From Nitrospinota bacterium (GTDB lineage Bacteria > Nitrospinota_A > UBA7883), in the NCBI GenBank assembly GCA_016207925.1, contig JACQZB010000052.1:11792-75791 (forward strand): a stretch of 64,000 bases of DNA. Direction: 5' to 3'. How positions within the stretch are numbered: the stretch's first letter is position 1; every line of letters starts with the position of its first letter. The notes beneath the pieces were generated by a model. That model had not been told where the DNA came from. It ran no database searches and was given only the letters and a program-made list of their open reading frames with translations. Both the position numbers and the translations under genes were made by a program. Positions 4,751 through 40,845 of the stretch are shown piece after piece.

Positions 4751-4755
4751 CCAGC

Positions 4756-6147
<1,392 letters not shown>

Positions 6148-6254: not shown

Positions 6255-7706
6255 ATGGGAGTTTTTGGGGGAAGACTTCCTTGGACGGCGTACGCCAGCG
6301 CCGCGGGCCGGGCGGGGCGCGCCGAAACGCTGATTACGCTGCGCAAGACGTCCGGCAAGCCGCGCCTTGAATCACTGCATGAATTGCCCGGGCGTCCGGA
6401 CGGGCGCCGCGCTGAATATTTCCGCTGGCCGCTTCCTATCGGCCTTTTGCGCGGCGCGCCCCTGGTTCTGAAAATCGTCAATCTCCCGGCCTTGCCGCGC
6501 CGTGAAGCAAAGGCGGCGGCCCGCTACGCCGTGGGTGACTCGCTGCCGTTCGCCCCGCGCGACATGGCGCTCGACGCATGGCGTGTGGGCGATCAAACGC
6601 TGGTAGCCTGCGCGCCGCGTGACGCGCTCGCGGAACAGGCGCGGCGGAATGCCGTCAGCGGATTCACCACGGTCCCCGCCGCGCTTGCCGCCCTGCGGCC
6701 TCCCGGCGCGGCGGGCGGCGCCGAATTGTTCCTGCTCGCGGACGATAACGTGGCGGGAGTGTATCTTCTGGAACGCGGCGCGCCGGTGTTTATCCGTGAA
6801 TCAACCATTCACCGGGACGCGCCGCTGGCCGTGGAAATCGCCCGGTCGCTGGAATACCTGCGCGCGCGGCGCATGGCCGGTCCGGAGACGAACGTGTGGA
6901 TCGTGGGCTCCCGCGCGTATGACCCGGAATCGCTTCAGGCCATGGAATCGGTGTTGAATCTTCGCCCCCATCCCTTCAATCCCCTGGCGGAGACGGTGGA
7001 GGCAAGCCCGGCGCTGGCCGCGGCCATCAGGGGGCGTGAAGCGGTGTTTGCGCCGCTTATCGGCGCGGCGCTTGATGGCGGCGCGCGCACTCGTCTTGCC
7101 CCGCCGCGCGGAGCGATAATGCGACGGGCCGCCCGGCGGCCGGTGGCGGCGGGAATCATCGCGGCGCTGATCGCCCATTTCCTTTTGTGGGGATGGTCAA
7201 GGGCGCAGCGATGGGATATGGAACAGGGGATTGACGCCGCCGAAGCGCGCCTGGCTCCGCTGGCGGACGCCGGAGCCAAAGCTGGGGAATTGGCCGCGCG
7301 CATCGCGCAGGCTCGTGGTGAAATCGCCCGGTTGGAGGGGGAACTTGGAGCTATGCCGTCATTGCGCGGCGCGGGAATTGACTGGGAGGCGGTGTGGTAT
7401 GAACTGGCGCGCGTGATGCCGCCGGGCGCGGCGCTGACCAGCGTTTCGGTGACGGTCAACGGCGATGGGGCGCGCGCCAGTCTCCGCGGCGCCACGCGCG
7501 GGGATGGTCCGGGGGACATCGCCGAACTGCGCCGGCTGGTGGAAGGGCTTTCCAAATCGCCCGCGTTCACCTCCGTCAGCGTGGGCGGCGCGGCGCCCGC
7601 GGGGCCGGCGCGGGACCGGCTTTCGTTTGAAATCCGCGCGCGGATCAACGAGGGCGCGTCGAGTTTCGCCCTGCCGGCCCACGCGCGCGAGGAGGCCGGA
7701 TCATGA
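6255..7706 (+). CDS. type IV pilus / T2SS inner-membrane assembly protein, PilM-like cytoplasmic domain fused to PilN-like TM/periplasmic domain (GspL-like architecture)
   Basis: 483 aa. N-terminal region has PilM-type motifs (LKIVNLPALPRREAKAAARYAVGDSLPFAPRDMALD). Mid-protein TM helix (VAAGIIAALIAHFLLWGW) followed by PilN-like coiled-coil and periplasmic segment. Confidence 0.6.
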   Translation: MGVFGGRLPWTAYASAAGRAGRAETLITLRKTSGKPRLESLHELPGRPDGRRAEYFRWPLPIGLLRGAPLVLKIVNLPALPRREAKAAARYAVGDSLPFAPRDMALDAWRVGDQTLVACAPRDALAEQARRNAVSGFTTVPAALAALRPPGAAGGAELFLLADDNVAGVYLLERGAPVFIRESTIHRDAPLAVEIARSLEYLRARRMAGPETNVWIVGSRAYDPESLQAMESVLNLRPHPFNPLAETVEASPALAAAIRGREAVFAPLIGAALDGGARTRLAPPRGAIMRRAARRPVAAGIIAALIAHFLLWGWSRAQRWDMEQGIDAAEARLAPLADAGAKAGELAARIAQARGEIARLEGELGAMPSLRGAGIDWEAVWYELARVMPPGAALTSVSVTVNGDGARASLRGATRGDGPGDIAELRRLVEGLSKSPAFTSVSVGGAAPAGPARDRLSFEIRARINEGASSFALPAHAREEAGS

Positions 7707-8293
7707 CGGCGCACACCGCCTCGCCGCGTGGAAGGGCCGCGCTCGCCGCCGCCGCGTTCTGCGTGACCCTGCTGGCGGGATGGGCCGCCGTGGCTCAGCC
7801 GGAGCGGGAACGGCTGCTTGCCTTGCGCGGGAAGCTTGAAACGGCTCATGCGCGCGAAACGGAGGTAACAGCCAACATCACCAGGATTCCGGCGCTTGAA
7901 CGCGAGGCGGCGCGGCTTACGGCGCGGCGGAACGGTCTGGCGGCGCGGCATGAACGCATGACGGACGTGATGGCGCGGGGGGCTTCGCTGGATGTGGCGC
8001 TGGCCGCCGTCGAAGAAGTGGCGGCCATCGGCGCGCTGGAGTTGAGGGAGGCCTCGGCGCCGGAACCCGGCAGCAAGGAAAACGGCGCGTCGTCCGCGTT
8101 CTGGAGCGCGCCGTTGACTGTTACCGTGGCGTGCGATTACCGCGCGGCGGCGCGGCTGCTGCAAAAGCTGGCGGCCTCGCCCGCGGCGCTTTCGCTTGAC
8201 GCCGTAACGTTGACCAATGGCGGGACGGGCGCGCCGCCGCTTCTGCTCACGGCGCGCATGACCATGTATGGGCGGCGGGGAGGGGGATCATGA
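7703..8293 (+). CDS. PilO/GspM-like pilus assembly protein
   Basis: 196 aa. Overlaps upstream gene by 4 nt, with GAGGAGG Shine-Dalgarno. N-terminal TM helix, coiled-coil, C-terminal periplasmic domain. Position after PilM/N. Confidence 0.5.
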   Translation: MTAHTASPRGRAALAAAAFCVTLLAGWAAVAQPERERLLALRGKLETAHARETEVTANITRIPALEREAARLTARRNGLAARHERMTDVMARGASLDVALAAVEEVAAIGALELREASAPEPGSKENGASSAFWSAPLTVTVACDYRAAARLLQKLAASPAALSLDAVTLTNGGTGAPPLLLTARMTMYGRRGGGS

Positions 8294-8676
8294 ACGCCCG
8301 GCTGGCCGCGGTCGCGCTGGCGATGGCGATAACGCTGGCCCCGGACGCGCGGGCGGGGTGGAGCCGGGACCCGTTCGTGTTCGGCGCTGACGCAAGGGAT
8401 GGAAACAGCGCGCCGCCGCGCCTGGAGATGATCCTCATCAAGGAAGGCGAACGGGTCGCCGTGTTCAACAGCGAGCGGATGCGCGCCGGGGACGTGGTGG
8501 AAGGATACGTCATCGTGGAAATCACGCTCGACGCCACCCGCAACTTCGCGGATCCGCTGACGGAGGACCGGCTCTTTGGGTGGCACGCCGCCCTCTTCCC
8601 AACCGGCCGCACCGGCATGACCAAAACCCCGGATCGCCGCCGCCTGCATGGCGGCGCTGGCGCTTTGTGGTTGTAA
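8290..8676 (+). CDS. PilP-like pilus assembly lipoprotein
   Basis: 128 aa. RDPF motif and C-terminal beta-domain pattern (LEMILIKEGERVAVFNSERMRAGDVVEGYVIVEI). 3' end overlaps the secretin start. Confidence 0.5.
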   Translation: MNARLAAVALAMAITLAPDARAGWSRDPFVFGADARDGNSAPPRLEMILIKEGERVAVFNSERMRAGDVVEGYVIVEITLDATRNFADPLTEDRLFGWHAALFPTGRTGMTKTPDRRRLHGGAGALWL

Positions 8677-10297
8677 AACCACCGCGCCGGAAGCGCCGTC
8701 CGCGCGCCCGTCATTCACCGCGCCGGTGATGGGCGCGGAGGAGCGCGGCCCGCTGCCGCCGGAGTTTTTCGTCACGGCGCCGGAGGGCGGCCAGCGTCCG
8801 GATCCCGGCGCGCCGCGCGACGATGATCCGCCGGAATTTACGGTGCGGCTGGACGAAATTCTTCCCGCCATGGGCGCGCCCGCGCGCGTGTCGTTGAATT
8901 TCCGCCAGGCGCCCGCGGGCGTGGTGGTGGGCACGCTGGCGGAGGCGTCGGGCTTCAACTTCCACCTTTCGCCGGCGGTCTCGGCGCAAACGTTGGCGGA
9001 CATGACCCTGCGCGACATTCCCTGGCCGGAGGCCCTGCGCGTCATCACACAGGCCAACGATCTGGCCGCCACCGTTGACGGGCGCGATGTTTTCTCACAA
9101 CCGCGCGGCGCTGCGGAATTGACGCGCGACAAGGTGATCGTGGTCATTACCCGCGCCGAATATGACCGGAGCCGCGAGCGCGCCCGCGAGGAGGCCGACC
9201 GGGCGGCGGGCGAAGCGGCGCGCCTGCGCGCGGTGGAGCAGGATCAGGCGGCGGCGCGCCTGCTGGACGGGCAGAACCGCATGGCCACCGCCAGCTACCG
9301 GTTCCGCTACGCCGACCCCACGGAGGCGTTGGCGTATCTGGAATCATTGTATGGGATCGCTCCCGCCGCCGAAAAAGGCAAGGATGAGGCCGCCGCCGCA
9401 TCACCGGCGCCCTCTCCCGGCGCCATACGCTTTTCGCTCTACAAGGCGGAAAACCTGCTGACCGTAACCGCCCCGCCGCGCGAGATGGAGCGCATCATGG
9501 CCCTTGCGCGGGAGATTGACACGCCCGCGCGGCAGGTGTTCATCGAATCGCGCATCGTGGAAATCCAGCGCAGTTCCATCGCTGAGTTGGGCGTGCGCTG
9601 GGGCGGCTATGTAACGCGCCAGACTGACCAGGTGTTTCCCGCATCGGTGGGTGTGTACGGCGCGGGCGCCGGGGGCGACGTGGTGGCGCTGCCGCCCGGC
9701 GGGGCGGTTGATCCGGCCACGGGCGCCATGCTGGCCGATCCCGCCGGCGGTTTGGTGGGCGTCACCCTGGGCGGGGTGAGCGGAGCGGAGCTTTTACGCG
9801 CGCGGCTCTATGCGCTTGAGCAGGCCGGGGTCAGCCGCACGCTGTCCAATCCCAAAATCATGACGGTCAACGGCGGAGTGGCGGTGATCAAGTCCGGGCG
9901 CGAAATCCCCTACCAGTCCAGTTCCGCCAACACGGGAACCACCGTGCAGTTCCGCGAAGCGGTCATCTCGCTCACCGTGCGGCCCAGCATCATGGACGAC
10001 CGGCGCGTGCGGCTGCGGATACAGGCGAACAAGAACGAGGTGGATCCCACGCTGTCGGTGCAGGGGACGCCCGCCATCAAGAAGAAGGAGCTTTCCACCA
10101 ATGTAGTGGTGGAAAATGGCGGCTCGGCGGCCTTGGGGGGAATGTTCGAAATGGAGGATGGGGATTTTTCCGATAGGGTACCATGGTTCCACGATATTCC
10201 TTTCCTTGGATGGCTGTTCAAGAACAAACGCTCGGTGGACAACCGGCTTGAGCTGCTGGTGTTCATCACGCCGACCATCGTGGAGGAGGGGCGGTGA
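8648..10297 (+). CDS. secretin (PilQ/GspD family), short form with lipoprotein signal
   Basis: 549 aa. Lipobox LALCGC. C-terminal secretin domain motifs (VFIESRIVEI..., VSRTLSNPKIMTVNGGVAVIKSGREIPY, ELLVFITPTIV). Confidence 0.85.
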   Translation: MAALALCGCKTTAPEAPSARPSFTAPVMGAEERGPLPPEFFVTAPEGGQRPDPGAPRDDDPPEFTVRLDEILPAMGAPARVSLNFRQAPAGVVVGTLAEASGFNFHLSPAVSAQTLADMTLRDIPWPEALRVITQANDLAATVDGRDVFSQPRGAAELTRDKVIVVITRAEYDRSRERAREEADRAAGEAARLRAVEQDQAAARLLDGQNRMATASYRFRYADPTEALAYLESLYGIAPAAEKGKDEAAAASPAPSPGAIRFSLYKAENLLTVTAPPREMERIMALAREIDTPARQVFIESRIVEIQRSSIAELGVRWGGYVTRQTDQVFPASVGVYGAGAGGDVVALPPGGAVDPATGAMLADPAGGLVGVTLGGVSGAELLRARLYALEQAGVSRTLSNPKIMTVNGGVAVIKSGREIPYQSSSANTGTTVQFREAVISLTVRPSIMDDRRVRLRIQANKNEVDPTLSVQGTPAIKKKELSTNVVVENGGSAALGGMFEMEDGDFSDRVPWFHDIPFLGWLFKNKRSVDNRLELLVFITPTIVEEGR

Positions 10298-11538
10298 GCC
10301 TGGCCGCGCTGGCGTTATGGATGGCCGCCGCCGCGCAGCCGGACGCGGGGTTCGTGGACGCCGCGCGCCTGGTGGGGGAAGCGCGCGTCATGGGGCGCGC
10401 GGGAGGATTCGCCTCCCCCGGTTCGCTGTTGACGCTGGATGTGGACCACGCCGCGGTGGTTCCGGGCGACCGGCTGCTGTTATACGAACCCGCGGAGGAG
10501 GGCGCCGGGCTGTACCGGCCCGTGGGCGCGGTGACGGTGGTTCCGGAAGGCACGGGCGCTGTCAGCGGTGTGGTGAGCGCCGCCGCGCGCGAGTTGTCCG
10601 GAAGGATGCTGCTGGGTTTCAGTCTGCCCTTGGAAATCCAGTTGACGCGCCATCTTCCATTTTTTGACAGTATCGCCCGCGCGTATCTCGCCAGTCCGCC
10701 CCGCGCGCCGTTGGCGGTGGCGGTGGTGGACGTCACCAATCCGCGCGGCGAACGCACCGCCGCCGGCGACCGGCTGCAAGACGGCGTGGAGCGGGCGCTG
10801 TGCGCGCGGCCGCAATTCGCCTGCGTACCGCGCGAGCGGGTGGAAACTTTCTTGCGCGAGGAGGGGGCCGCCACGTCGCGCGCGCTCGACGCCGCGGCGC
10901 TAACGGATCTGCGCGTGCGTTTGGCGGCGGATGTGGTTATCACGGGGCATTATCACGCCATGGAACCGGGCGGCGTGGAGTACGCGCTGCGCGCCATGGC
11001 GATTAAACCGGGCTTGGCCCCGCGGTCGCTGTGGCGCAAGGGCGTGTTGACCGCGCAGGAGTGGGGCGGAGAGGCGGATGAGCGGGTTACGGCCGGCTTT
11101 CAGCCGCTCCGCCGGGCGCGGATCACCGTCAAGGCTCTGGAAGCGGCTACCGTGGAGGGTGTCAAGGCGCGCCGTGTGGCCATGGCGAAGCTTGAGGAAC
11201 TTTATCCGGGGCGCGAACTGGACGGTCAACGATACGCGCCCCCCGCCTTGTCGCTGACCATTGGGGACCGCGCGGTTGATTTGCCCGGTCCCGGCGCCAC
11301 CTACAGCGCCCTGATCCCGGCGGGATTGGCCGCCATAACCATCGCGTACCTGCCCCTGCCGCTGGACATGCGGATGGAAGCGGGACCGCCGCCGCGCCCC
11401 TTGACCGAAAAGGTGAATGTAAGGATCGAGGAGGGCGAGGAATTGATCGTGACGTTGGTTCCGCGCGAGGAGCGTGGGTATGCGATCCTGGCGGTGAATT
11501 ATTCAAAAGTGGGGGAAAAAGGCGCGGGGACGAGGTAG
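10294..11538 (+). CDS. hypothetical secreted protein encoded in the pilus/secretin operon
   Basis: 414 aa. GTG start overlaps the secretin stop (GTGA) with GGAGGAGG Shine-Dalgarno. N-terminal signal-like MSLAALALWMAAAAQP. No recognisable motifs. Confidence 0.5.
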   Translation: MSLAALALWMAAAAQPDAGFVDAARLVGEARVMGRAGGFASPGSLLTLDVDHAAVVPGDRLLLYEPAEEGAGLYRPVGAVTVVPEGTGAVSGVVSAAARELSGRMLLGFSLPLEIQLTRHLPFFDSIARAYLASPPRAPLAVAVVDVTNPRGERTAAGDRLQDGVERALCARPQFACVPRERVETFLREEGAATSRALDAAALTDLRVRLAADVVITGHYHAMEPGGVEYALRAMAIKPGLAPRSLWRKGVLTAQEWGGEADERVTAGFQPLRRARITVKALEAATVEGVKARRVAMAKLEELYPGRELDGQRYAPPALSLTIGDRAVDLPGPGATYSALIPAGLAAITIAYLPLPLDMRMEAGPPPRPLTEKVNVRIEEGEELIVTLVPREERGYAILAVNYSKVGEKGAGTR

Positions 11539-11545
11539 CTGACCG

Positions 11546-11845
11546 TCAGGCTTGCGCGCCGCCCTCGTCTTTGTGATCCACGGTTTCGCGGAAATCCTTG
11601 CCCGTTTTGAAGAAGGGCACCTTCTTGGCGGGCACATGCACCTTCTCGCCCGTCTTGGGGTTGCGCCCCTCCTTCTCCGCCCGGTTGCGGACGCGGAACG
11701 ATCCGAAACCCCTGATTTCCACCTTGTCACCGCGGGCCAGCGCCTCGATGATGCTGTTGGTGAAAATGTTGATGATGTCTTCAGCCTGCTGCTTTTTGAT
11801 ATTGATCTTTTCAGCAAGCTTTTCGGCCATCTCGGATTTCGTCAT
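11546..11845 (-). CDS. HU/IHF family DNA-binding protein (IHF-beta-like)
   Basis: 99 aa. RGFGSF...GRNPKTGE...VPFFKTGK arm motifs of the HU/IHF fold. Confidence 0.85.
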   Translation of the reverse strand: MTKSEMAEKLAEKINIKKQQAEDIINIFTNSIIEALARGDKVEIRGFGSFRVRNRAEKEGRNPKTGEKVHVPAKKVPFFKTGKDFRETVDHKDEGGAQA

Positions 11846-12953: not shown

Positions 12954-13074
12954 GCCCGGACATCCACCCACTGTTTGAACGATTGTAGCACGATATGTTT
13001 TTTCAAAAGCAATGAACCGCCGGCCCGCGGCGCAGCCGCGCGCGAGTTTTTTTCGCGCCCGTCATGCGGCGGCG

Positions 13075-15883: not shown

Positions 15884-17109
15884 ATACCGGCGGCGCCGCG
15901 CGGCGCGGAATTTCACCGGGCGACTGCGGCGCCAATGGCGTGGGGCCGGGCGCCTGCGGACTGTACACCGCCATCGGCGAGGTGAACCTGCACGCCGCCC
16001 TGCAGGCCGCCAAGACCATGCAGGAGCGGGGCACCTTCGGCGCCGGGATCCTGCTGCGCGGCTGCTACCCGAAACGCAAAAACTACTTCGCGTTCCACGT
16101 GCTCTTCCGCAACCGCGAGGTGGCCCGCGAATTGGAGCCGCTGTTCACCGAGGAAAAAGTCGGGATGCGCCACTACGGCGAAATGGAGCCGCTGGTGGAC
16201 GCGGAAATGTACCGCAAGTATGATCTGCCGGAAATGCGCCGCTACTTCATGATCCCGCCCGGGCAGGACGTGATGCTGCGCCGCAAGCACACCGACAACG
16301 AGTACGAGTACGTCCGCCGCGTGGTGGAGGAGTACAACCAGACCCACATGGGCCAGTCGCGCATCTTCTCCTCCGGCAAGGACGTGGGCAACTTTTTGAC
16401 CGCGCTGACGCTGGAGGACACCATACGCGCATTCAACCTGTACCAGTACGAAAGCGCGCCGTTGACGGCCATCATGGCTCACATGCGCTGGCCCACCAGC
16501 ATCGTGGACACCGGCGTGTGGTGGGGCGCGCATCCCATCAGCTTCCTCAACTCCGCGGTGGTCCATAACGGCGATCTTTCCTCCGCGCAGTCCAACCGGC
16601 AGGGGTTGGAGGCGGCCGGAGTGGAGCGCATGGTGGGCACCGACTCGGAGGCGATCCTGCTGGAAGTGGACGATCTGGTGACCCGCCGCGGCTTTTCCAT
16701 GCGCGAGGTGGAATGGGTGATGTGCCAGAAGTTCCCCAAGGAGCTTTCCGCGCTGGAGCAGGACGAACGCCGGGACTACCTGAAAATGGTGGGCGACCCC
16801 ATCCTGTCGCGTTACAAGATGAGCGGGCCTTCTTCATTCATCGCCATCGTGGGTGACAAGGTGATCGCCGGGCGCGACCGCGACGGCCTGCGCCAGTTGT
16901 GGATGGGCCGCTCCGATGACGGCAAAACCGTTATCTGGGGTTCCGAGGAAAAAGTGATCTACCAGACCGCGTGGATGGTGGAAAAACGTTTTCGCGCCAT
17001 CAACTGCGAACCGGGCAAACTGGTGGCGTTCGAGCTTTCCGGCGAGGGCAAGATCAAGGATTTGTACGGCGAAACGCTGGCGCCCCGTAACGCGGAGATG
17101 CCTATATGA
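15880..17109 (+). CDS. glutamate synthase large-subunit domain 1: class-II glutamine amidotransferase subunit (archaeal-type split GltB)
   Basis: 409 aa. ATGA overlap with the upstream gene. Ntn-type catalytic Cys context (DCGANGVG). GATase-2 fold motifs. Confidence 0.7.
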   Translation: MNTGGAARRGISPGDCGANGVGPGACGLYTAIGEVNLHAALQAAKTMQERGTFGAGILLRGCYPKRKNYFAFHVLFRNREVARELEPLFTEEKVGMRHYGEMEPLVDAEMYRKYDLPEMRRYFMIPPGQDVMLRRKHTDNEYEYVRRVVEEYNQTHMGQSRIFSSGKDVGNFLTALTLEDTIRAFNLYQYESAPLTAIMAHMRWPTSIVDTGVWWGAHPISFLNSAVVHNGDLSSAQSNRQGLEAAGVERMVGTDSEAILLEVDDLVTRRGFSMREVEWVMCQKFPKELSALEQDERRDYLKMVGDPILSRYKMSGPSSFIAIVGDKVIAGRDRDGLRQLWMGRSDDGKTVIWGSEEKVIYQTAWMVEKRFRAINCEPGKLVAFELSGEGKIKDLYGETLAPRNAEMPI

Positions 17110-18713
17110 CAACCGCCATGGAAACAAATTCCACCCTGCGGCTCGACAGCCGCGAGATCGTGTACGACCGCCCCCTCAAGGTGGGCATCGGCCAGATGGG
17201 CGGCCCCTACAAGGTCACCGTGGATCCGGACAAATGCGTATGGTGTTTCACCTGCGTCTATCAGTGCACCCACAACATCTCCGACAAGGCGCGCAAAACG
17301 GGCGTGTTCGAGGGGGTGACGGTGTTCCTGGACGAGAAGAAGCGCCGCCTGCCCGCCACCGCCGCCGAAGGGGCGTTCCTGCGGCAGGAACTGCGAATCA
17401 TGGATCTTGACTGCTGCAACTGCAAGCGGTGTGTGGCCATGTGCCCCACCAACGCCATCACGGTGGACCACAGCCCCAACTGGGACGTCATCGGCACGCC
17501 GGAGAACAACGCCACGGTCATTTTCCAGAACCTCTCGCGCTCCGAGGGGAAGAAGATGACCAGTTCGATGCAGGAGTACAGCCAGCCGCCGGATTACGAG
17601 GATTTCCACATAGACGCCTCCATCATCCTCAATCCGCAGCGCGACAACCGCAACGAGTTCGCCGGCCAGCTTTCCCACTGCTACCTGGGCAAGCATCCGG
17701 AGCGGCGCCACCGGGTGCATCTGCCGGTGTTCGACTCGCACATGAGCTACGGCTCCAACAGCCACGAGGCCATGCTGGCGCGCATCCTGGCCAGCGTGGA
17801 ACTGGGGCGGCCCTTTTTCGCTGGCGAGGGCTACCTGCATCCGGACTTCGCCCCGGCGTTCAAACATTGCATCCTGCAGTTCGGCACCGGCGGGTTCGGC
17901 CCGTGGGTTGATCTGGACCAGTTCCTTGGCATATCCATGAAGTACGGCCAGGACGCGAAGAAAGGCAAGGGGGGCAAGCTGCCCGCGCCCAAGAACGACT
18001 GGGAGATAGCGCTGATCCGCTGCATCGAGCCGTACCGCGACGTCAACAGCCCCAACCCGCAGCACTTGCAGTACTCCATCGAGGAGCTGCGGATGCGGAT
18101 CGCGTCGCTGCGCGCGGCGCTTGGCCCCAACAAGCTGGTGGGCGCGGACATATACGGCACCATCTGGAACATCCAGCACATCGTGGTGGCCCTCGCCCGC
18201 GCGGGTTTCGATTACATCACCCTGCGCGGCGGCGGCGGCGGCACGGGCGCCGCCTCGATCACCGATCTGCAGAACCGCGGCCTTAACACGCTGTACATCG
18301 GCAAACTGGCGCACGACGCCCTGGTGGAAGAGGGGCTGCGCGAGTCGGTGTCGCTGATCGGCGAAGGCTCTTTCCTAAATCCAAAGATGGCGCTGATGGG
18401 CCTGATGGTGGGCTATGATTTCGTGGGCACCGGCACGCGCCACCTTATCCCGCTGGGCTGCACCATGTGCCGGCGGTGCCACACGGGCCAGTGCGCCTGG
18501 GGCATCACCAGCCGCCCCTGGGGCCACCGCATTGACCCGGAGGAGGGCGCGCTGCGGATCGTGAACATGATGAAATCGTGGAAGCGCGGCATGGAGGGCC
18601 TCGCCGCCGGCTTGGGCTTCACCACCCACGGCGACGTGGTCGGCTCGCGCATGTTCCGCTACCACGGCAAGAACCCGTTGTTGTATGAAGCCTTCGGCAA
18701 AGGGCCGTTCTAG
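17106..18713 (+). CDS. glutamate synthase large-subunit domain 2: FMN-binding central domain with N-terminal 2x[4Fe-4S] ferredoxin motifs
   Basis: 535 aa. CVWCFTCVYQC and CCNCKRCVAMCP motifs. GltB central-domain FMN/FeS region (LRGGGGGTGAA, CTMCRRCHTGQC). Confidence 0.8.
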   Translation: MTTAMETNSTLRLDSREIVYDRPLKVGIGQMGGPYKVTVDPDKCVWCFTCVYQCTHNISDKARKTGVFEGVTVFLDEKKRRLPATAAEGAFLRQELRIMDLDCCNCKRCVAMCPTNAITVDHSPNWDVIGTPENNATVIFQNLSRSEGKKMTSSMQEYSQPPDYEDFHIDASIILNPQRDNRNEFAGQLSHCYLGKHPERRHRVHLPVFDSHMSYGSNSHEAMLARILASVELGRPFFAGEGYLHPDFAPAFKHCILQFGTGGFGPWVDLDQFLGISMKYGQDAKKGKGGKLPAPKNDWEIALIRCIEPYRDVNSPNPQHLQYSIEELRMRIASLRAALGPNKLVGADIYGTIWNIQHIVVALARAGFDYITLRGGGGGTGAASITDLQNRGLNTLYIGKLAHDALVEEGLRESVSLIGEGSFLNPKMALMGLMVGYDFVGTGTRHLIPLGCTMCRRCHTGQCAWGITSRPWGHRIDPEEGALRIVNMMKSWKRGMEGLAAGLGFTTHGDVVGSRMFRYHGKNPLLYEAFGKGPF

Positions 18714-18722
18714 GAAAATCCC

Positions 18723-19796
18723 ATGAGTGATACCGCGCAGACTCCGGCGAAAAAATCAAAACCGGCCAAGACCGTGACGCTGAACGCCACCACTCCGTTG
18801 GAGCAAGTGGCCGCGCTGGCCTCGGGACGCCGCGCCGTGACCATTGACTGCGGCGTGCTGGCCATGGACGGCGGGTACCTTAACCAGATGATGAAGGCCG
18901 CGCGCGGCGCGGGCGTGGAAGAGTTCACCTTGCTCAATGTATGCGGGCAGAACATCGTGGGCACCGGTGTGGCCGGCCCCTGCCGCATTGACGTGTACGG
19001 GCTGATGGGCAACCATTCGGCGGCGTTCGTGGACAAGGTGACCATCAACACCTACCCCACCACGTTTCCCAACGGCGTGTGGTGCCCCGGCGACGCTCAG
19101 GTGGCCATCGGCAACACATCCAATCCCAAGGAAATGAACATCGGCGGCTCCGTGGACGACCTGTTCGCCAGCTACTGCCCCTCCGGCCTGTTCCGTGTGG
19201 CCGGGCAGGGCGGCAACCGCTGCGGGCTGCGCGCGGGCGCGGGCGTGCCGCATGTCTGGCGCGAGATTGACTACTCGCAGTTCGCCGGGTTGTCCGTGGA
19301 GGGGACGAAGGAAGAATTGCTGTACCGCTACCAGCAGCGCCGCGCCCGTGTCAACCGGATCGGCTTCCAGCAGTTCCTGTTGGAATATAAACAGAAGGTG
19401 GAGGACCGCCAGCCGCCGGTGATCGTGTTCGGGCGGCGTGTGCGCGACTACTTCATGGAATACGCGCAGGGTTCCATCGGCGTGATCCTCAACGTGTACA
19501 ACGTCCCCAACCCGGCGGGGTACTACATCTGCTCCGGCATGACCGCGGGCGCCGTGTTCATCCGCGGCGACATCGGCCCGGAGCGGCTGGGCCACGCGGT
19601 GGTTTTTGGCGGATTGACGGATATGGATCGGGAATTTCTCAAGACCCAGATCGAGGCGTTCTACGACACGTTTAACCGCCACCTCACCGACTCGTACCAG
19701 GAGAAGCTCGACGAATTGATGAACCGCTTCGCCAAGGAGGCAGCCGAGGTCGTTGGCGAGTTCCTGAAAATCGTTCCGGGCGTGGATACGGACTGA
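18723..19796 (+). CDS. glutamate synthase large-subunit domain 3: GXGXG-motif domain subunit
   Basis: 357 aa. Repeated G-x-G-x-G beta-helix motifs (VGTGVAGPCRIDVYG, AGQGGNRCGLRAGAG) typical of GltB C-terminal domain and FwdC. Confidence 0.75.
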   Translation: MSDTAQTPAKKSKPAKTVTLNATTPLEQVAALASGRRAVTIDCGVLAMDGGYLNQMMKAARGAGVEEFTLLNVCGQNIVGTGVAGPCRIDVYGLMGNHSAAFVDKVTINTYPTTFPNGVWCPGDAQVAIGNTSNPKEMNIGGSVDDLFASYCPSGLFRVAGQGGNRCGLRAGAGVPHVWREIDYSQFAGLSVEGTKEELLYRYQQRRARVNRIGFQQFLLEYKQKVEDRQPPVIVFGRRVRDYFMEYAQGSIGVILNVYNVPNPAGYYICSGMTAGAVFIRGDIGPERLGHAVVFGGLTDMDREFLKTQIEAFYDTFNRHLTDSYQEKLDELMNRFAKEAAEVVGEFLKIVPGVDTD

Positions 19797-19911
19797 CCGC
19801 CGCGCTGTCCGCCATTCCGGCCGTAGGGGCGATTCATGAATCGCGCCACCCCCGCGTTCGCTCCGTTGCGCTATACTTTCTCCGGATGGGCAGATTAACC
19901 GGGAGCGCGGC

Positions 19912-20871
19912 ATGGAGACCAGGGAACTGATCGCATGGGGCGCCGGCGGCATGGTGGCCGGCGGCGATGTCCACGGCGAACGCTACCAATACTTCAACCT
20001 CGCCAGCGGCCTGCGCCTTGATATGGACGAGGCCCAGGCGCGCACAAGCGCCGCGTGGACCATTGGCGTCAAGCGTTCGGTGATCTGCGTCAACAGCGGC
20101 GTGGCGGGGCCGGGCGCCGCGCGGCTGGCCTGCGTGACGCCGCCGGTGGACGTTTCGCGCGAGGAATTCGCCCGGCTTACCGGTGACGATTTCAAAAAAC
20201 GCTTCGACGCCGTTACCGGCGTTCCTGACGGCGCGGAATTCCGGGAGGAGGGGGTTGAACCGGCGATTTTCGGTTGGCGCGAACGGCGCGGGGAGCGGTG
20301 GGCCGCCCCCGCGGGCAAGGGGTGGAAGCTGCGGCTGGCGGATGGTGAAAGTTTCGCCAAAATGCGGATCCGCGCCATTGGGGACGACACGCTGACCGTC
20401 ACCATCGAGTACGCGTACCAGCCGGCGAAGGAAGCGCCGCTTACTGAAGATCGCCAGGCAACCATCCGCCCCGGCGAGGCGTTCAGCTTCCGGCGGGGGG
20501 CCGCCGCGGCGGCCGAAGCGCTTGGCTGGGACCTGTTGCACGGCGGGGAAAAGCTGTTTCTCAACAGCTCCGTGTCCGGACCGGGACGGGCGGGCGCGCT
20601 CGGCTCCAACAAATACGGCGCGCTGTGGAAAACAATCACCAGCGCCGGGGACAGTGTGGCCTATTTCATGGACGAGTTCGGCGAGGCCTTCCGTTCGCCC
20701 AAGTGGTACCGCTACAACATAGACGGCAAGCACAACATCCATCCCAACGGCGCGGTGTACGTCCTGCGGGCGCCAGAAGGCGATTTCAAGATTCAGATAT
20801 ACCACTACGATTTTTTCGACACGGAGGATCCCGCCAAGGGGAGCCTGCGTCTGCGGTACGCGCGGTTGTAG
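19912..20871 (+). CDS. hypothetical protein
   Basis: 319 aa, no signal peptide, no motif recognised. 10 nt upstream of the GAF gene, so probably co-transcribed. Confidence 0.5.
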   Translation: METRELIAWGAGGMVAGGDVHGERYQYFNLASGLRLDMDEAQARTSAAWTIGVKRSVICVNSGVAGPGAARLACVTPPVDVSREEFARLTGDDFKKRFDAVTGVPDGAEFREEGVEPAIFGWRERRGERWAAPAGKGWKLRLADGESFAKMRIRAIGDDTLTVTIEYAYQPAKEAPLTEDRQATIRPGEAFSFRRGAAAAAEALGWDLLHGGEKLFLNSSVSGPGRAGALGSNKYGALWKTITSAGDSVAYFMDEFGEAFRSPKWYRYNIDGKHNIHPNGAVYVLRAPEGDFKIQIYHYDFFDTEDPAKGSLRLRYARL

Positions 20872-20880
20872 GGGGGGGCG

Positions 20881-21606
20881 GTGAATTTCCCGTTGGGGTA
20901 CTACGAAGCTCTGATCATCCTTGTCACCGCCGGGGCGATGGCGGTGCTGTTCCGCGCCCGCTACATGGGCCGGCTGGAGCGCATCACCGCGCGCGTGGAG
21001 GATGCGGCCGACAACCTGGATGTCCGCGTGGAGGAGGACAAGGACAGCCCGTTGAGCGAGCTTGCCGGGGCCGTGGACCGGGCGCTGGCGATCCGCGCGG
21101 CGGACATCTACCACCTGCGCGGAACCATGGAGGAGTTGGAGCGGGCTGACGGGGCGCTGCGCGCCGTCATTGACAAGGGTCTGGCCGTGGCGGGCGCGGG
21201 CAGCCCGCGCGAGGCATTGCGGTTGGCCGAGGAAGCGTTGGCCCAGATCACCGGCGCGGCGGGCGCCTGGGTGCTGCTGCGCGACGGCGGCGGGCTGACG
21301 CGCCTGTCCGCGGCGGGCGAAACGACGCATATCCCCCTCAACGCGCCGGGAATATTCGCCCGCGTGGCGCGTGAGGGTGAGGCGATGTTCACCAATAATG
21401 TGGAATACGAATCCGCCTACGACCCCGCGGCGGACGGTTTTCCCGGCGGGCCGCGCCACGCGCTGTTGGCCGTCCCCGTGCGGTGGGGTGACGCCACGTT
21501 GGCGGTCGCGGCCTTGGGTGACAAGGCGCAAGGGTTCGCCGATGAAGACATGGAAACCGCGTCGCTTTTCGCGCGGTTCATCGCCCTGGCGCTGAAGGGC
21601 CGGTGA
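20881..21606 (+). CDS. membrane-anchored GAF-domain protein
   Basis: 241 aa, GTG start. One N-terminal TM helix (ALIILVTAGAMAVLF), coiled linker, C-terminal GAF-like fold. Confidence 0.55.
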   Translation: MNFPLGYYEALIILVTAGAMAVLFRARYMGRLERITARVEDAADNLDVRVEEDKDSPLSELAGAVDRALAIRAADIYHLRGTMEELERADGALRAVIDKGLAVAGAGSPREALRLAEEALAQITGAAGAWVLLRDGGGLTRLSAAGETTHIPLNAPGIFARVAREGEAMFTNNVEYESAYDPAADGFPGGPRHALLAVPVRWGDATLAVAALGDKAQGFADEDMETASLFARFIALALKGR

Positions 21607-21665
21607 AAAGGCCGCCGCGGGGAATGCGATAATCGTATAATAGGTCCTACGAACCTTGGGTGGGG

Positions 21666-22049
21666 ATGGCGCTTATGGTAACAGGCAAGACCGCGCTGGT
21701 GGTGGACGATTACCACAGCATGCGCCTGACCCTCAAGGAGCATCTTCAGGGTTTCGGCTTTTCAGTGATGGAAGCGGAGAACGGCCTGCAGGGGCTGGAA
21801 ATGGCCCGCAAGGACCCGCCCGATATAATTTTCACCGACATCGTGATGCCCGTCATGGACGGCCTGGAGCTATGCCAGGAGCTTAAGAACGATCCGGCGC
21901 TGGTGGGCGTCCCCGTGGTGGTGCTGTCCACCCATGCCGACGCCTCTTACATCCTCAAGGCCATCCATAACGGCGCCGACGACTATGTGCCCAAGCCCAT
22001 CGAAGCCCCCCTTCTTAAGAAAGTGGTAGCGAGGCTGCTGCATGACTGA
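21666..22049 (+). CDS. CheY-like single-domain response regulator
   Basis: ORF 21660..22049, ATG 21666 after GGGTGGGG. Canonical receiver residues (VVDD, FTDIVMP, VLST, VPKP). Confidence 0.85.
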   Translation: MALMVTGKTALVVDDYHSMRLTLKEHLQGFGFSVMEAENGLQGLEMARKDPPDIIFTDIVMPVMDGLELCQELKNDPALVGVPVVVLSTHADASYILKAIHNGADDYVPKPIEAPLLKKVVARLLHD

Positions 22050-24189
22050 AAAGGACGTAACCCTCGACCGGATGCTGGTCAAAATCTCCCATCTGGACCG
22101 GTTGCTGGGGCTGGTGGGGGAGGTGATCATCACTTCCAACTCCATCGCCACCACCAACCGGCGCATCCAGGAGCATTACGACCGCAAGGCGCCGCTGGAC
22201 AAGCTTTCGATGGACATGATCAAGGCGGCGGAGGAGTCGAGCAACCGCATCTCCTCCGACCTGCATGGGCTGGTCATGGACATCCGCATGGTGGAGATCA
22301 AGGGCACGTTCCAGCGGTTCCGCCGCCCCATGCGCGACATGGCCAAGGAAGCCGGCAAGGAGGTGGAATTCGTCACCGAGGGGGAGGACACCCTGGTGGA
22401 CAAGACCATCGCCGAAAAACTGTACGATCCTATCAACCATCAGATACGCAACGCCATTGACCACGGGGTCGAGGACCCGTTTGAGCGCCAGCGCGCGGGA
22501 AAGCCCGCCAAGGCCAATGTGCTGTTAAAGGCGTACCAGCGCGAGAACAACATCTACATCGAAATCCGCGATGACGGACGCGGCATGGATCCGGACGCCA
22601 TCGCGCGCGCCGCCGTCGCCCGCGGGCTGGCCTCGGAGACGGAGACGGCGCGGCTTTCCCCGGAAGATAAGCTTCGGTTCATTTTCCAGGCCGGATTCTC
22701 CACCAAGGAAAAGGCCAGTACGCTCTCCGGCAGGGGCGTGGGGATGGACGTGGTCCGCAGCAACATCGAGGAGCTGGGCGGCGAGGTGGTGATAGACACG
22801 CGCATCGGCCAAGGCAGCGTGTTCATCTACAAGATTCCGCAAGTCACCGCCGTGAATATCCTCGACTGCCTTACGGTGCGCTCCGGCGCCAACCTGTTCG
22901 CGGCGCCCATACTCAACGTGGTCTCCACGGTGCGCGTGCCGCGCGCCAAGATACATGTCGCCTTTGGCAAGGGCAAGTCCATCACGCACCTGGGGAACAT
23001 CATCCCGCTGCACGACCTCAATGAGTTGCTGGGCGAGTCGCCGCTGGATCACGCCGGCGACGCCACCATCGTGATCCTGGAGGCCAAGAAGGGCCGCCTG
23101 GCGGTGGAGGTCAGCGAGTTTTTGGCGCCCGAAAAGCTGGTGTACACGCCGCTGGGAAGAATGTTCCACGTGCAGGGCGTCTCCGGCGTGACGGTGATGA
23201 GCGGCAACAAAATGGGGCTGGTGATTGACGCGGCGCAGCTTTTGGACCGTTCGCGCGGCATCGCCGCGGATGTCGAGGAGGAGGGGTCGGTCAGCGCGCT
23301 GGTCAAGAAGATCAAGGAGGGCGGCATTCAGGCCGCCGCACCGCCCCCGCCCGTGGAAAAGGCGCCCCCCGCCGTTACGGCGGCGCCTGCCGGCATGGTG
23401 GAAGCGGAAAGTTTCGGCGACCGCAAGGTGCTTTCCTCGGATGTGGGCAGGGAAATCGCCCACCGCGAGGAGTTCCTCATGGAACTTGAGGAAATGCTCA
23501 ACGCCGCCGGGGGGGAAATCCTTTCACTGGAGCAAAACCCCAACGACCGCGAACTGCTCAACCGCATCTTCCGCGCCTTCCATTCGATGAAGGGCAACCT
23601 GATGATGGTGGGCCTTACGGAGTTGGGATCATTTATCCACGAGGTCGAGGCCATCCTGGACCGGGCGCGCTCCGGCGATCTGACGGTGGACAGCGAAATC
23701 GTGGACATCCTGCTCGACGGCGCCGACGTGATCGGCGCGGCGCGCCAGGCGCTGGCGCAGGGCAAAGCGCCCTCCATTGACACGGGCTTGCTCAAAACAA
23801 TCGAGAAGTTCAAAAAACCGCTAGAGAAAAAAGAGGCCCAGATCGTGGACGTGAGCCAGCGCACCTTCCACCTGGGCGCGCTGGAGCGCTTTAACCTGCT
23901 CGCGCGCCGCCAGGCGGGCCAGTACGTCTATCAGGTATTCCTTTCCTTCAAACCGGAGTACCAGCAGCCGTTCCTCGTGGCGCTGCTCATCCTGCGGCGA
24001 CTTTCTGATATCGGCCTGATTTTCGGTTCCGTGCCCGCCGTGGAGGAGATTGAGAACCAGAGCGTGGGCACACAGCTTAAGGTCATGTTCGCTTCGCAGT
24101 ACGACTCGGAAAAACTGAAGGAGTACGTCGAGTCGCGGTTGGTGAAGTTCTACGACGTTACCGATTTTGAAATCCTTAAAACGTTCTGA
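22042..24189 (+). CDS. CheA-like histidine kinase with permuted domain order (P3 dimerisation, P4 HATPase, P5 CheW-like, HPt, then an unknown C-terminal domain)
   Basis: 715 aa. Overlaps the upstream REC gene by 8 nt. N-terminus starts with CheA P3 motif (LDRLLGLVGEVII). P4 N-box, G1 and G2 motifs present (HQIRNAIDHGVE, DDGRGMD, GRGVGMDVV). CheW-like domain around aa 270-410. HPt motif FRAFHSMKGN around aa 520. About 150 unassigned C-terminal residues. Confidence 0.75.
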   Translation: MTEKDVTLDRMLVKISHLDRLLGLVGEVIITSNSIATTNRRIQEHYDRKAPLDKLSMDMIKAAEESSNRISSDLHGLVMDIRMVEIKGTFQRFRRPMRDMAKEAGKEVEFVTEGEDTLVDKTIAEKLYDPINHQIRNAIDHGVEDPFERQRAGKPAKANVLLKAYQRENNIYIEIRDDGRGMDPDAIARAAVARGLASETETARLSPEDKLRFIFQAGFSTKEKASTLSGRGVGMDVVRSNIEELGGEVVIDTRIGQGSVFIYKIPQVTAVNILDCLTVRSGANLFAAPILNVVSTVRVPRAKIHVAFGKGKSITHLGNIIPLHDLNELLGESPLDHAGDATIVILEAKKGRLAVEVSEFLAPEKLVYTPLGRMFHVQGVSGVTVMSGNKMGLVIDAAQLLDRSRGIAADVEEEGSVSALVKKIKEGGIQAAAPPPPVEKAPPAVTAAPAGMVEAESFGDRKVLSSDVGREIAHREEFLMELEEMLNAAGGEILSLEQNPNDRELLNRIFRAFHSMKGNLMMVGLTELGSFIHEVEAILDRARSGDLTVDSEIVDILLDGADVIGAARQALAQGKAPSIDTGLLKTIEKFKKPLEKKEAQIVDVSQRTFHLGALERFNLLARRQAGQYVYQVFLSFKPEYQQPFLVALLILRRLSDIGLIFGSVPAVEEIENQSVGTQLKVMFASQYDSEKLKEYVESRLVKFYDVTDFEILKTF

Positions 24190-24194
24190 CAGCC

Positions 24195-25115
24195 ATGGCC
24201 GACATCATACTGGCGGGAAGCTCCGACGAATCCCTGGGCGGCGTGGGGGATATCCTCGCGGCGCGGGGCGAAAAATGCGAACGGCTGGAGCTTGACCTGA
24301 CGCATCCCGAATTTATCAGCCGCGTGGCCGGTCTGCGGCCCGCCGTGGTGCTGGCGCGGTTCCATGAGGGCGATCTGGCCTCCATCAAGGCCATGCAGAC
24401 CATGCGGATGGCCACCCGCTGCGTGCAGGCCATTTTCATCACCCAAAAACCGCTGTCCGCCCCCATCCTGACGCTGATGTTCAACGAGGGCGCCTTTGGC
24501 GTACTGCAGGAACCGCTGGACGCCGCGCTGGCCTGGCAGCTTATCCGCCAGGCCATCAAACGCAGCAAATGGGAACGCGATGAAATGGCGCGGGACGAGG
24601 AACTGCGCCGCCTTAACGAAAGCCTGCGCCAGCGCGCGGATATGTTGGAAGGCGAGACCGCCCGCGACCATGAAACCATTGACCGGCTCGAGCAACTCGC
24701 CTATCTATTGATCGCCGACCGGGGCTTCAAGCCGCAATCGGTGCAGGCGCTCATTGTCTCCAACGCGGAGTACCAGCGCGGACTGCTGGAGGAAGAATTC
24801 AAAAAGCTCGGCTTCGTCACCCATACCGCCAAGACCGCCGGCGAGGCCATGCCGATGATAAAGAAACAGTCGCCGGACATCGTGCTGTCCGACCTGGAAC
24901 TGTCCGACATGTCCGGCATGGAGTTCGGCAGGAAGGTCAAAAGCGAGCAGGGTTATCCCCGCACCCATTTTGTGATCATCACCTCCTCGCCGGAGAAGGT
25001 GGACAAAATCATGTCGCCGGAGACAAAAGTGGATGATTGCGTGGTCAAGCCCCACGGCGGCGGCAAGTTGTACACCATCGTCGCCCGCGCCGCCCTGGGC
25101 CTGCTGGAACGCTAG
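24195..25115 (+). CDS. tandem receiver protein: N-terminal pseudo-receiver (no phospho-Asp) plus C-terminal functional-looking receiver
   Basis: 306 aa, 6 nt downstream of the CheA-like gene. Domain 1: SSDE and PAVVLARF replace the DD and phospho-Asp positions. Domain 2: SDLELSD, FVIITSS and VVKPH retain D/T/K. Confidence 0.65.
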   Translation: MADIILAGSSDESLGGVGDILAARGEKCERLELDLTHPEFISRVAGLRPAVVLARFHEGDLASIKAMQTMRMATRCVQAIFITQKPLSAPILTLMFNEGAFGVLQEPLDAALAWQLIRQAIKRSKWERDEMARDEELRRLNESLRQRADMLEGETARDHETIDRLEQLAYLLIADRGFKPQSVQALIVSNAEYQRGLLEEEFKKLGFVTHTAKTAGEAMPMIKKQSPDIVLSDLELSDMSGMEFGRKVKSEQGYPRTHFVIITSSPEKVDKIMSPETKVDDCVVKPHGGGKLYTIVARAALGLLER

Positions 25116-26855: not shown

Positions 26856-27172
26856 ATTTTCAACTCTAACACATCCGCTTCTTGTGTCATGGGAAAACCG
26901 GGGTTGAAGGCACTAAAGATACCATTGATGGAATCGGGGCGGAAAAATTTTCCGCATCCGCGCGCCCTTTGGCCCAGACGCGCCGGGAAACTGAAACGCC
27001 AGTGTTTAAGCGATGTTGGCAGGCAGCGGAGCAACGTATTGAATAACTGAAAGTAAAAATCGCTAATGGGGTGTTTCCCCCGATCCGATACATAAGGCGA
27101 TTCGTGGCCCGCGCCACGGCATGGAATTGGCTCTGTCATGGAGTGACAGGGTTTAAGCGCAAGGAGGATACG

Positions 27173-27916
27173 ATGCTGGGGTTGTCGTTATTCAGGATCG
27201 GAGGGAAAAACGGTAAGGCAAGCCGCCGCCCGGGCGCCATATCCTTGGCCCGGCATATTATTGAGCGCGCCTGCCGCCGGTCGGTACATACGGAAGTCAC
27301 GGTCAAGGGAACCGGCAAGCGCTATGGCTCGTTTTTTGTCGCGATGAACCCCGCCAACTCCGGCGAGTATTACCTGGACGCGCTGGCGCCGCACTCGATG
27401 CACGAGTTTTTGACTCCCGGCGCAAGCGTGCTGGAGCTTGATTTTGACATTCGCGGCACGCGGTACCAGCTTGAAAGCCTGTATCGCGGAATCGAGTTGT
27501 ACGAAGGGTTTCACACCTTGCGGCTGGAGATTCCCCCGGCCATCCGCGAAACCCAGCGGCGTGAAGCCTATCGCGTCCGCCCGCGCATAACCGATCCCGC
27601 GCGGTTGGAGTTGGCCGGCGGCGAAAAGATAAACCTGCACGACATAAGCGGCGGCGGGGTCAGTTTCACTCTTGACCGCAAAATCGCGCCCGGTCAGATG
27701 CTGTCGGCGCGGCTGCGCCTGCCCGGTGAACGCGCGCCGCTGAACCTGAAGATCGAAGTGGTGGCCTGCGAGACGCGCAATCACAACGGCGTCACGGCGG
27801 CGCCGGGGATGTGCCTGACGCGCGGCAAGTTCGCGGGGCTTTCGCTGGACGAAGAGCGCCGCGTGTACAGCTATGTGCTGGACCGCGAGCGGGAGTTGCT
27901 GCGCGTATTCGGCTGA
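27173..27916 (+). CDS. PilZ-domain c-di-GMP-binding protein
   Basis: ORF 27071..27916, ATG 27173 preceded by AAGGAGG. RxxxR (QRREAYR) and D-x-S-x-x-G (DISGGG) PilZ signatures. Confidence 0.8.
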   Translation: MLGLSLFRIGGKNGKASRRPGAISLARHIIERACRRSVHTEVTVKGTGKRYGSFFVAMNPANSGEYYLDALAPHSMHEFLTPGASVLELDFDIRGTRYQLESLYRGIELYEGFHTLRLEIPPAIRETQRREAYRVRPRITDPARLELAGGEKINLHDISGGGVSFTLDRKIAPGQMLSARLRLPGERAPLNLKIEVVACETRNHNGVTAAPGMCLTRGKFAGLSLDEERRVYSYVLDRERELLRVFG

Positions 27917-38996: not shown

Positions 38997-39009
38997 AAGG
39001 AGCATCACG

Positions 39010-39402: not shown

Positions 39403-39421
39403 CGAAGAAAGGAACGGCGCC

Positions 39422-39880: not shown

Positions 39881-39931
39881 ACGCGCCGTTATCGCCACTC
39901 CGCCAGTAAACTTCCGTAAAGGGAGAGTGCG

Positions 39932-40836: not shown

Positions 40837-40845
40837 GGCGCGGCC

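Follow-up and report, generated by a model that had tools for sequence, protein, structure and literature searches.

The chemotaxis histidine kinase CheA, as known from Escherichia coli (class F7) and from Thermotoga maritima and Bacillus subtilis (class F1), carries its domains in the order P1-(P2)-P3-P4-P5, with the phosphotransfer domain P1 (Hpt) and the docking domain P2 ahead of the dimerization, ATP-binding, and CheW-like domains. By what means P1 and P2 gain access to P4 and in what way receptors control that access are active questions in CheA research, and current models lean on an N-terminal tether of P1-P2 to P3. The split CheA3/CheA4 of Cereibacter sphaeroides and an operon-encoded stand-alone Hpt show that P1(-P2) need not be fused N-terminally, and CheA4 starts with P3 (PMC10782961). 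In the CheA-CheY fusions of class F3, F5, ACF, or Tfp and in ChpA, a C-terminal extension follows P5 on a linker (PMC10782961). Here, we describe a stretch of 64,000 nucleotides (nt) from a Nitrospinota bacterium (assembly GCA_016207925.1, contig JACQZB010000052.1, positions 11,792 to 75,791; hereafter, the window) that encodes a CheA whose P1 and P2 domains lie behind P5, giving the order P3-P4-P5-P1-P2.

The product of the kinase open reading frame (ORF), 715 amino acids (aa) long, was compared with Pfam and PDB and modeled with AlphaFold2 (AF2) from a 30-sequence family alignment. From the N terminus, Pfam recognizes H-kinase_dim (PF02895; residues 13-81; E = 7e-7) as P3, HATPase_c (residues 133-267; E = 2e-15) as P4, CheW (PF01584; residues 276-403; E = 6e-15) as P5, Hpt (residues 476-559; E = 1.2e-10) as P1, and PF07194 (residues 629-701; E = 4e-9, exceeding the gathering score) as P2. 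A preliminary description of the locus, made from the sequence itself, had correctly read the kinase as opening with a dimerization domain and bearing Hpt C-terminal to P5; it had left about 150 aa at the C terminus unassigned, and a domain does lie there, but it is P2 and not a novel one. The dimerization motif LDRLLGLVGEVII occupies residues 18-30, and P4 contains the N (133-142), G1 (177-181), F (218-222), and G2 (229-238) boxes. In P1, the motif FHSMKGN (residues 513-519) places the phospho-acceptor H514 in an HxxKG context with K517 and E536, residues that we take to be the equivalents of H48, K51, and E70 of E. coli CheA. These three residues and all four boxes are invariant in the family alignment. 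By Pfam, the kinase has a single Hpt domain and no receiver, and neither HisKA nor Response_reg finds a match in it.

The same assignment was reached through known structures. In the PDB sequence search, residues 12-401 match the P3-P4-P5 portions of E. coli (6S1K) and T. maritima (1B3Q) CheA, and residues 476-578 match the CheA P1 structures 1TQG, 2LD6, and 1I5N. When the last 120 residues of 12 family members were made into a profile, its top match in the PDB, at a marginal E value of 0.0036, was 1U0S_A, the P2 domain of T. maritima CheA. P0138, a divergent member of the family, matches Pfam P2 at an E value of 1.4e-21, and the C-terminal domain of the window kinase weakly matches canonical CheAs exactly between P1 and P3. 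The AF2 model consists of five folded domains in the permuted order. P3 forms a helical hairpin (helices 15-48, 54-81, and 86-103), P1 is a helix bundle (475-588), and the linker between P5 and P1 (409-459) is disordered, with a predicted local distance difference test (pLDDT) value of ∼27. Fold prediction, already proposed for the unassigned C-terminal region, returned a compact alpha/beta domain (613-714; pLDDT 80-90). By Foldseek, the model matches CheA structures, P4 aligning to P4 structures, including 1I58 and 1I59, with template modeling scores of 0.85-0.94; P3 aligns to the P3 domains of 1B3Q and 4XIV.

The kinase ORF as listed is the longest possible and the DNA upstream of it is the CheY gene, so no N-terminal Hpt domain is hidden there. 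The CheY stop overlaps the kinase start by 8 nt (ATGACTGA), as previously noted, and the third gene follows closely, at a gap of 5 nt and not the six given earlier. The five plus-strand ORFs of the preliminary description stand as listed: the GC content at their third codon positions (GC3) is 0.78-0.86, as is usual for genes in this window of ∼63% GC, compared to 0.69 in a long antisense ORF (19834-21531). Judged by its predicted domains, the kinase is an exact circular permutant of CheA, in which the P2-P3 linker was opened and a new P5-P1 linker was made, and there is no sign that the protein is inactive.

With canonical CheA, the protein shares all five domains in single copies, the catalytic residues, and a CheY neighbor, and its P3-P5 portion can be aligned over the full length with 1B3Q and 6S1K. 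It differs in the permuted order, cut within the P2-P3 linker, in the new linker of 55-79 aa, and in the lack of accompanying methyl-accepting chemotaxis protein (MCP), CheW, CheR, and CheB genes; apart from the N-to-C order P1-(P2)-P3-P4-P5, every compositional hallmark of CheA is present. In contrast to the split CheA3/CheA4, it is one polypeptide, with P1-P2 behind P5 and no separate Hpt gene. Compared with the CheA-CheY fusions and ChpA, the appended part is P1-P2 and not a receiver, and its single Hpt is not N-terminal; the multiple Hpt domains and C-terminal receiver of the ChpA-like Tfp class are thus absent.

To gauge the distribution of this architecture, a collection of 5.8 billion proteins, clustered at 90% identity, was searched, and the best 120 homologs were scored. 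In total, 119 of the 120 are complete and have the order P3-P4-P5-P1-P2, and the remaining one is N-terminally truncated. Since these homologs come from independent assemblies, the architecture is not a product of chance or of faulty assembly. The window kinase is 100% identical to a protein (P0001) from a Nitrospinota metagenome-assembled genome (MAG). The hosts of the 120 are Nitrospinota, Thermodesulfobacteriota, Candidatus Adiutrix and other delta-type MAGs, and Planctomycetaceae, and they include a complete deltaproteobacterial genome (Smac51, CP026657); some members lie on contigs of >1 Mb. An exhaustive phmmer search over 1.84 billion 50%-identity representatives yielded 21,423 CheA-like proteins at E < 1e-30. 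Among the 150 that score best, only ∼20 share the collinear layout of the window kinase, and all those that score lower carry P3-P4-P5 C-terminally. The architecture first read from one sequence is thus found elsewhere as well, as a small fraction of CheA-like clusters. Hidden Markov model boundaries confirmed the order in eight representatives chosen from the divergent ones, the most distant at 32% identity, and it is the same in all 21 full-length family representatives tested.

When the core alone (residues 6-405) was scored, 21 permuted and 3 core-only proteins reached at least 269 bits, and 128 canonical CheAs reached at most 260 bits. Since core-alone scores separate the permuted from the canonical CheAs, the permuted proteins look like one small clade, in which the permutation probably arose once. 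Across phyla, identity is 56% in P3, 44% in P5, 41% in P1, and 13% in the P5-P1 linker; despite this low identity, the linker length is held at 55-79 aa throughout the family. P5 appears to be under constraint, given that its cross-phylum identity is similar to that of P1. The core-only proteins P0130 and P0166 were considered as fission intermediates and rejected, because P0130 proved to be an in-frame stop within collinear linker sequence. That stop lies directly after P5 (L091, 301-1658) and may reflect a nonsense mutation or a sequencing error, with read-through as a further possibility. A profile scan of contigs with the family alignment was dominated by canonical CheAs; the one permuted locus that it recovered was L010, and no cultured organism was among its matches.

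Family members are named "chemotaxis protein CheW," "Hpt domain-containing protein," "ATP-binding protein," or "hypothetical" in NCBI records, and on the permuted kinase, the NCBIfam CheA equivalog models score 299 bits against a cut-off of 950 bits. Such mis-annotation probably explains why the family went unnoticed. The permuted order is undescribed in the 8 million open-access papers and preprints that were searched, a set that extended neither to Wuichet and Zhulin (2010) nor to the strings in Table S2 of PMC10782961. The 2023 survey of CheA architectures in PMC10782961 covers composition, duplications, fusions, and bipartite forms and does not use the words "permut," "rearrang," or "domain order"; none of the 12 CheA architectures of Vass et al. 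is described as permuted, and PMC2829493 uses "circular permutation" for gene order. The architecture must also occur in the InterPro/Pfam architecture listings. What is new here is the permuted order of a mis-annotated kinase clade and not a new kind of system. Because models sensitive to domain order miss the permuted kinases, chemosensory censuses probably count too few kinases in Nitrospinota, Desulfobacterota-type, and Planctomycetota genomes.

The gene neighborhood of the kinase was compared in ten cassette-type contexts (L001, L002/L003, L004, L005, L007, L008, L009, L010, L090, and L092/L093), which span Nitrospinota, delta-type, and Planctomycetota genomes. In all ten, a single-domain receiver gene lies directly 5′ of the permuted cheA, usually overlapping the kinase start, and wherever the contig continues, the gene after the kinase encodes a protein of 300-321 aa. 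The flanking genes differ completely among lineages, and the three genes therefore travel as a cassette. The conserved unit is CheY, the permuted CheA, and an ∼305-aa two-receiver protein, three genes and not the five suggested by the preliminary description, which had added the two genes upstream; both are present in the window. In the window, the end of the cassette is marked by a convergently oriented gene for tryptophanyl-tRNA synthetase, which overlaps the stop of the third gene by 4 nt (Table 1).

TABLE 1 Features of the permuted cheA locus, in window positions
Feature	Position	Strand	Basis
Permuted CheA histidine kinase, 715 aa, P3-P4-P5-linker-P1-P2	22042..24189	+	Pfam, PDB matches, AF2, Foldseek, homologs
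P3 dimerization domain, aa 13-103, N-terminal	22078..22350	+	H-kinase_dim, AF2
P4 ATP-binding kinase domain, aa 108-267	22363..22842	+	HATPase_c, Foldseek
P5 CheW-like domain, aa 272-404	22855..23253	+	CheW PF01584
P5-to-P1 tether, aa 405-474, Pro/Ala-rich, predicted disordered	23254..23463	+	AF2
P1/Hpt phosphotransfer domain, aa 475-590	23464..23811	+	Hpt, PDB matches, AF2
P2 response-regulator docking domain, aa 613-715	23878..24186	+	Pfam P2 PF07194, profile, AF2
CheY-like single-domain response regulator, 129 aa, first cassette gene	21660..22049	+	Pfam Response_reg, E 1.5e-28
Third cassette gene, 306 aa, pseudo-receiver/helix/receiver	24195..25115	+	Pfam Response_reg 186-296, AF2, Foldseek
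Transmembrane-anchored GAF protein with HAMP-like segment, 241 aa	20881..21606	+	GAF_2 E 6e-15, weak HAMP match
319-aa protein, marginal HmuY	19912..20871	+	HmuY E 2e-6, 28.5 bits vs cut-off 27
PilM-like...secretin cluster (type IV pilus or secretion assembly)	6255..11538	+	Secretin 8648-10297

The CheY proteins are 37-76% identical across loci and always keep the acidic pair, the phospho-Asp, the Ser/Thr, and the Lys, which in the window are D16 and D17, D60, S90, and K112, respectively. The AF2 model of the 306-aa protein (pLDDT 89.9) comprises two (beta-alpha)5 receiver folds: a pseudo-receiver (aa 4-105), a 65-residue helix (110-174) that continues the last helix of this N-terminal fold, and a C-terminal receiver (184-305). 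Two receiver domains, the first without a phospho-Asp, had been recognized from the sequence, and the model and alignments agree: the pseudo-receiver lacks the conserved Lys, and in Nitrospinota, Arg55 takes its phospho-acceptor position. In the delta-type and Planctomycetota relatives, an Asp occupies that position. The C-terminal receiver keeps D233, T263, and K285, and its acidic pair is replaced by S189-N190; the relatives have S-D, S-A, or S-H there. The top Foldseek matches are the tandem-receiver proteins PleD (2V0N; E = 3.5e-12) and 3LUF, and the FrzS pseudo-receiver is also listed. PleD-type tandem receivers, FrzZ, and FrzS share with the 306-aa protein two receiver folds, one of them degenerate. 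The 306-aa protein differs from them in having no GGDEF or other output domain, in placing the pseudo-receiver first, in its 65-residue helix, and in the partly degraded acidic pocket. Two single-domain response regulators are also found together in some known systems, as with PilG/PilH and with PixG/PixH (PMC11181946).

Receptor and adaptation genes are not part of the cassette. As the preliminary description had stated for the vicinity of the kinase, MCP, CheW, CheB, and CheR are missing: Pfam scans of the ∼50 ORFs spanning the window found no MCPsignal, CheW, CheB, CheR, CheC, CheD, or CheX match in a separate gene. The grouping of MCP and CheW genes, and usually CheR and CheB genes, with cheA that marks a chemosensory gene cluster of the Wuichet-Zhulin classes (F1-F17, ACF, Tfp) is found neither in the window nor directly beside the kinase in the cassette loci. 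Elsewhere in related genomes, che genes do occur. The assembly containing L009 also encodes a canonical CheY and a P1-P3-P4-P5 CheA (L053), and a CheA-CheY-CheW-CheR-CheA cluster (L050) is present in a further Nitrospinaceae MAG. P0138 (830 aa; L006), the permuted CheA that diverges most, directly follows CheW and CheR, the only locus in which these two accompany the kinase. The full run of genes there (L006, 3790-10493) is a response regulator-SpoIIE protein, STAS, a response regulator-HATPase_c_2 protein resembling an anti-sigma kinase, STAS, CheW, CheR, and the permuted CheA, apparently a Che-like pathway feeding a partner-switching module. A gene for a CheX-family CheY-P phosphatase lies ∼700 nt 3′ of the cassette in L090 (6036-6602, minus strand), with no equivalent in the window.

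Upstream of the cassette in the window, a gene encodes a transmembrane (TM) protein with a HAMP-like segment and a GAF domain. A full-length ortholog (29% identity; E = 3e-24) occupies the same position in L090, from one other Nitrospinota lineage, whereas L002, L092, and all loci from outside Nitrospinota have no such gene upstream of the cassette. A homolog search with the GAF protein gave one near-identical match. The TM-GAF protein is a lineage-specific companion and a candidate local sensor, outside the universal cassette. For the 319-aa gene farther upstream, a GC3 of 0.81 favors coding, and tblastn finds no match in any related locus; the HmuY-like gene was rejected as a part of the module on account of this absence. 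The HmuY family is haem-binding, and the 319-aa protein has no obvious signal peptide.

We consider it likely, with a probability of roughly 0.7, that the protein is a functional CheA-class kinase whose P1-P2 unit has moved behind P5 on a disordered tether of 55-79 residues and which works by ordinary CheA phosphotransfer. From the conserved domains and residues, we infer autophosphorylation and phosphotransfer along the following lines. P3 would dimerize the kinase, and P4 would bind ATP and phosphorylate H514 of the P1 domain tethered C-terminally. P2 would then dock the translationally coupled CheY (21660-22049), and phosphorylated P1 would pass its phosphoryl group to CheY D60 and probably also to D233 of the 306-aa protein, which could provide a second output or take up phosphate as a sink. 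P1 remains functional in trans when liberated, and P2, although dispensable, speeds transfer (PMC10782961), so relocation of P1-P2 should preserve function. Likewise, P5 tolerates C-terminal appendages, as CheA-receiver fusions show; approximately one-third of CheAs carry a C-terminal receiver after P5 (PMC10782961). As the input, control through P5 by CheW/receptor complexes encoded in trans is favored because P5 is conserved, relatives encode CheW and MCPs elsewhere, and one divergent member stands beside CheW and CheR; the TM-HAMP-like-GAF protein may add to this input in a Nitrospinota sub-lineage. With P1-P2 attached behind P5 by a linker of constrained length, the family offers a natural experiment on tethering, bearing on cis versus trans autophosphorylation and on the need for the P2-P3 linker in regulation.

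Several points weigh against a CheA that operates in the ordinary way. No CheW or MCP gene is present in the 64 kb of the window or within 6-10 kb in the cassette-type loci examined, except for one MCP gene, accompanied by FlgM, ∼9 kb from the cassette in L002, and coupling of the permuted CheA to receptor arrays is an assumption. The function of every family member is read from sequence and predicted structure. Because the acidic pocket of its C-terminal receiver is degraded (S189-N190), phosphorylation of the 306-aa protein may be slow or absent. The association with a pilus-type gene cluster, considered below, holds in 3 of ∼11 contexts and could be plain synteny.

The dearth of receptor genes also favors a self-contained, array-independent cytoplasmic unit, in which P5 would have been repurposed to bind another partner, such as the TM-HAMP-like-GAF protein in this lineage or the pseudo-receiver of the third protein and the permutation would reflect a new regulatory logic. 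The cassette loci of three phyla have no MCP or CheW gene adjacent, the cassette moves among unrelated neighborhoods as a three-gene unit, an orthologous TM-GAF gene sits directly upstream in two Nitrospinota lineages, and strong conservation of P5 would equally fit a family-specific partner. However, most cassettes have no GAF gene, which so cannot be the general input, the divergent permuted CheA of L006 is beside CheW and CheR, and canonical che genes occur in genomes that carry the cassette. It is common for orphan CheAs to rely on receptors whose genes lie elsewhere. On balance, we regard array independence as unlikely. That the cassette lies outside chemotaxis cannot be concluded, with P5 conserved, che clusters present in trans, and P0138 next to CheW/CheR.

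The same observations bear on a broader proposal, that the cassette represents an unrecognized chemosensory class without MCP/CheW arrays, its kinase controlled through P5 bound to a different partner, such as the TM-HAMP-like-GAF protein, or through its own two-receiver protein, and its output directed to a type IV pilus-like or competence system and not to flagella. If true, relocation of P1-P2 would be a structural adaptation enabling array-free control. We judge such a class to be rather improbable. The receptor-less three-gene cassette, with its unusual pseudo-receiver/helix/receiver protein, may be a compact signaling unit with a new output. In the neighborhoods compared, one hint of an output recurs. 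The window contains a PilM-like gene, two small genes, a secretin gene, and a 414-aa gene, followed by a gene for HU (11546-11845). This run (window 6255-11845) is homologous and syntenic to one (L092, 1-6183) that divergently adjoins the cassette in L092/L093, with 45% identity for the secretin and 96% for HU. In the window, the block is inverted and lies ∼10 kb upstream of the cassette, with ∼8 kb of other genes (Crp, DUF1858, the glutamate synthase cluster, HmuY-like, and GAF) in between; in L006, too, a secretin gene lies close to the permuted cheA. The pilus cluster is a possible target of the cassette or an ancestral neighbor, a weak link, and a pilus-related output is doubtful at best. 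PilZ-domain genes, of the cyclic di-GMP receptor type, lie 2-4 kb 3′ of the cassette in two unrelated lineages (window 27071-27916, plus strand; L005 14236-14859), and the one in L005 adjoins a gene for a cyclic nucleotide (cNMP)-binding protein.

The preliminary description had suggested a possible Hpt-relay variant. In such a relay, the C-terminal Hpt would act as a station in a His-Asp-His-Asp phosphorelay similar to ArcB or BarA and not as the site of primary autophosphorylation. The position of Hpt after the catalytic domain, as in the hybrid kinases ArcB, BarA, and TorS, and the two receiver proteins encoded on either side of the kinase gene lend this some appeal. The likeness is superficial: hybrid kinases have a DHp H-box as their primary site and a receiver before the HPt, whereas the permuted CheA has neither and has P3, P5, and P2. 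H514, in a CheA-like P1 with K517 and E536, is the sole conserved phospho-His candidate, and no DHp/HisKA H-box is present. No receiver intervenes between kinase and Hpt, the domain after Hpt is a CheY-docking P2, a hallmark of the direct His-to-Asp transfer of CheA, and there is one Hpt and not several as in the Tfp/ChpA relays. With no sign of a His-Asp-His-Asp path, the relay has very little probability and the earlier proposal is unsupported. An artifact or decayed gene (mis-assembly, a MAG-only fusion through a lost stop, or a pseudogene) can practically be dismissed: although the sequence derives from a MAG and P0130 has an in-frame stop after P5, the same ORF and order recur in >120 clusters of independent assemblies, including CP026657 and contigs of >1 Mb, the catalytic residues are invariant, GC3 is coding-like, and the P0130 stop is an isolated nonsense mutation or error in collinear linker sequence.

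Scans for promoters and terminators between 19600 and 25400 gave nothing above chance, and scans of the window against Rfam and for tRNAs had no matches. Directly upstream of the signaling genes, on the same strand, is a four-gene cluster (14300-19796, plus strand) resembling an archaeal-type split glutamate synthase. It encodes a GltD-like Pyr_redox_2/Fer4_20 protein, a class-II GATase-like protein, a Glu_synthase+Fer4 protein, and a 357-aa protein that has no Pfam match and very weak similarity to subunit C of formylmethanofuran dehydrogenase. Genes for second-messenger and sensor proteins are frequent in the window, among them those for cNMP-binding-GGDEF (198-1229, minus strand), GAF-GGDEF (4687-6147, plus strand), Crp-family (12270-12971, minus strand), and GAF-PAS-PAS (35773-37590, plus strand) proteins. 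Farther downstream, DsrE/DsrF/DsrH-like sulfur-relay genes are followed by genes for a 4Fe-4S (NrfC-like) protein and an NrfD-like membrane protein (38640-42072, plus strand), and a sigma-54 activator gene lies at 42349-43449 on the minus strand. A candidate ComEC/Rec2-like competence channel gene (44081-∼46500, minus strand), called by synteny with the DUF4131/Competence and Lactamase_B genes of L092 and with a long ORF that overlaps its neighbor, adjoins an aspartyl-tRNA synthetase gene (46580-48397, plus strand). Additional type IV pilus or secretion components are encoded at 54573-57647 (minus strand), where a T2SSF (PilC-like) gene, an unassigned 245-aa gene, and a T2SSE (PilB/PilT-like ATPase) gene are found.

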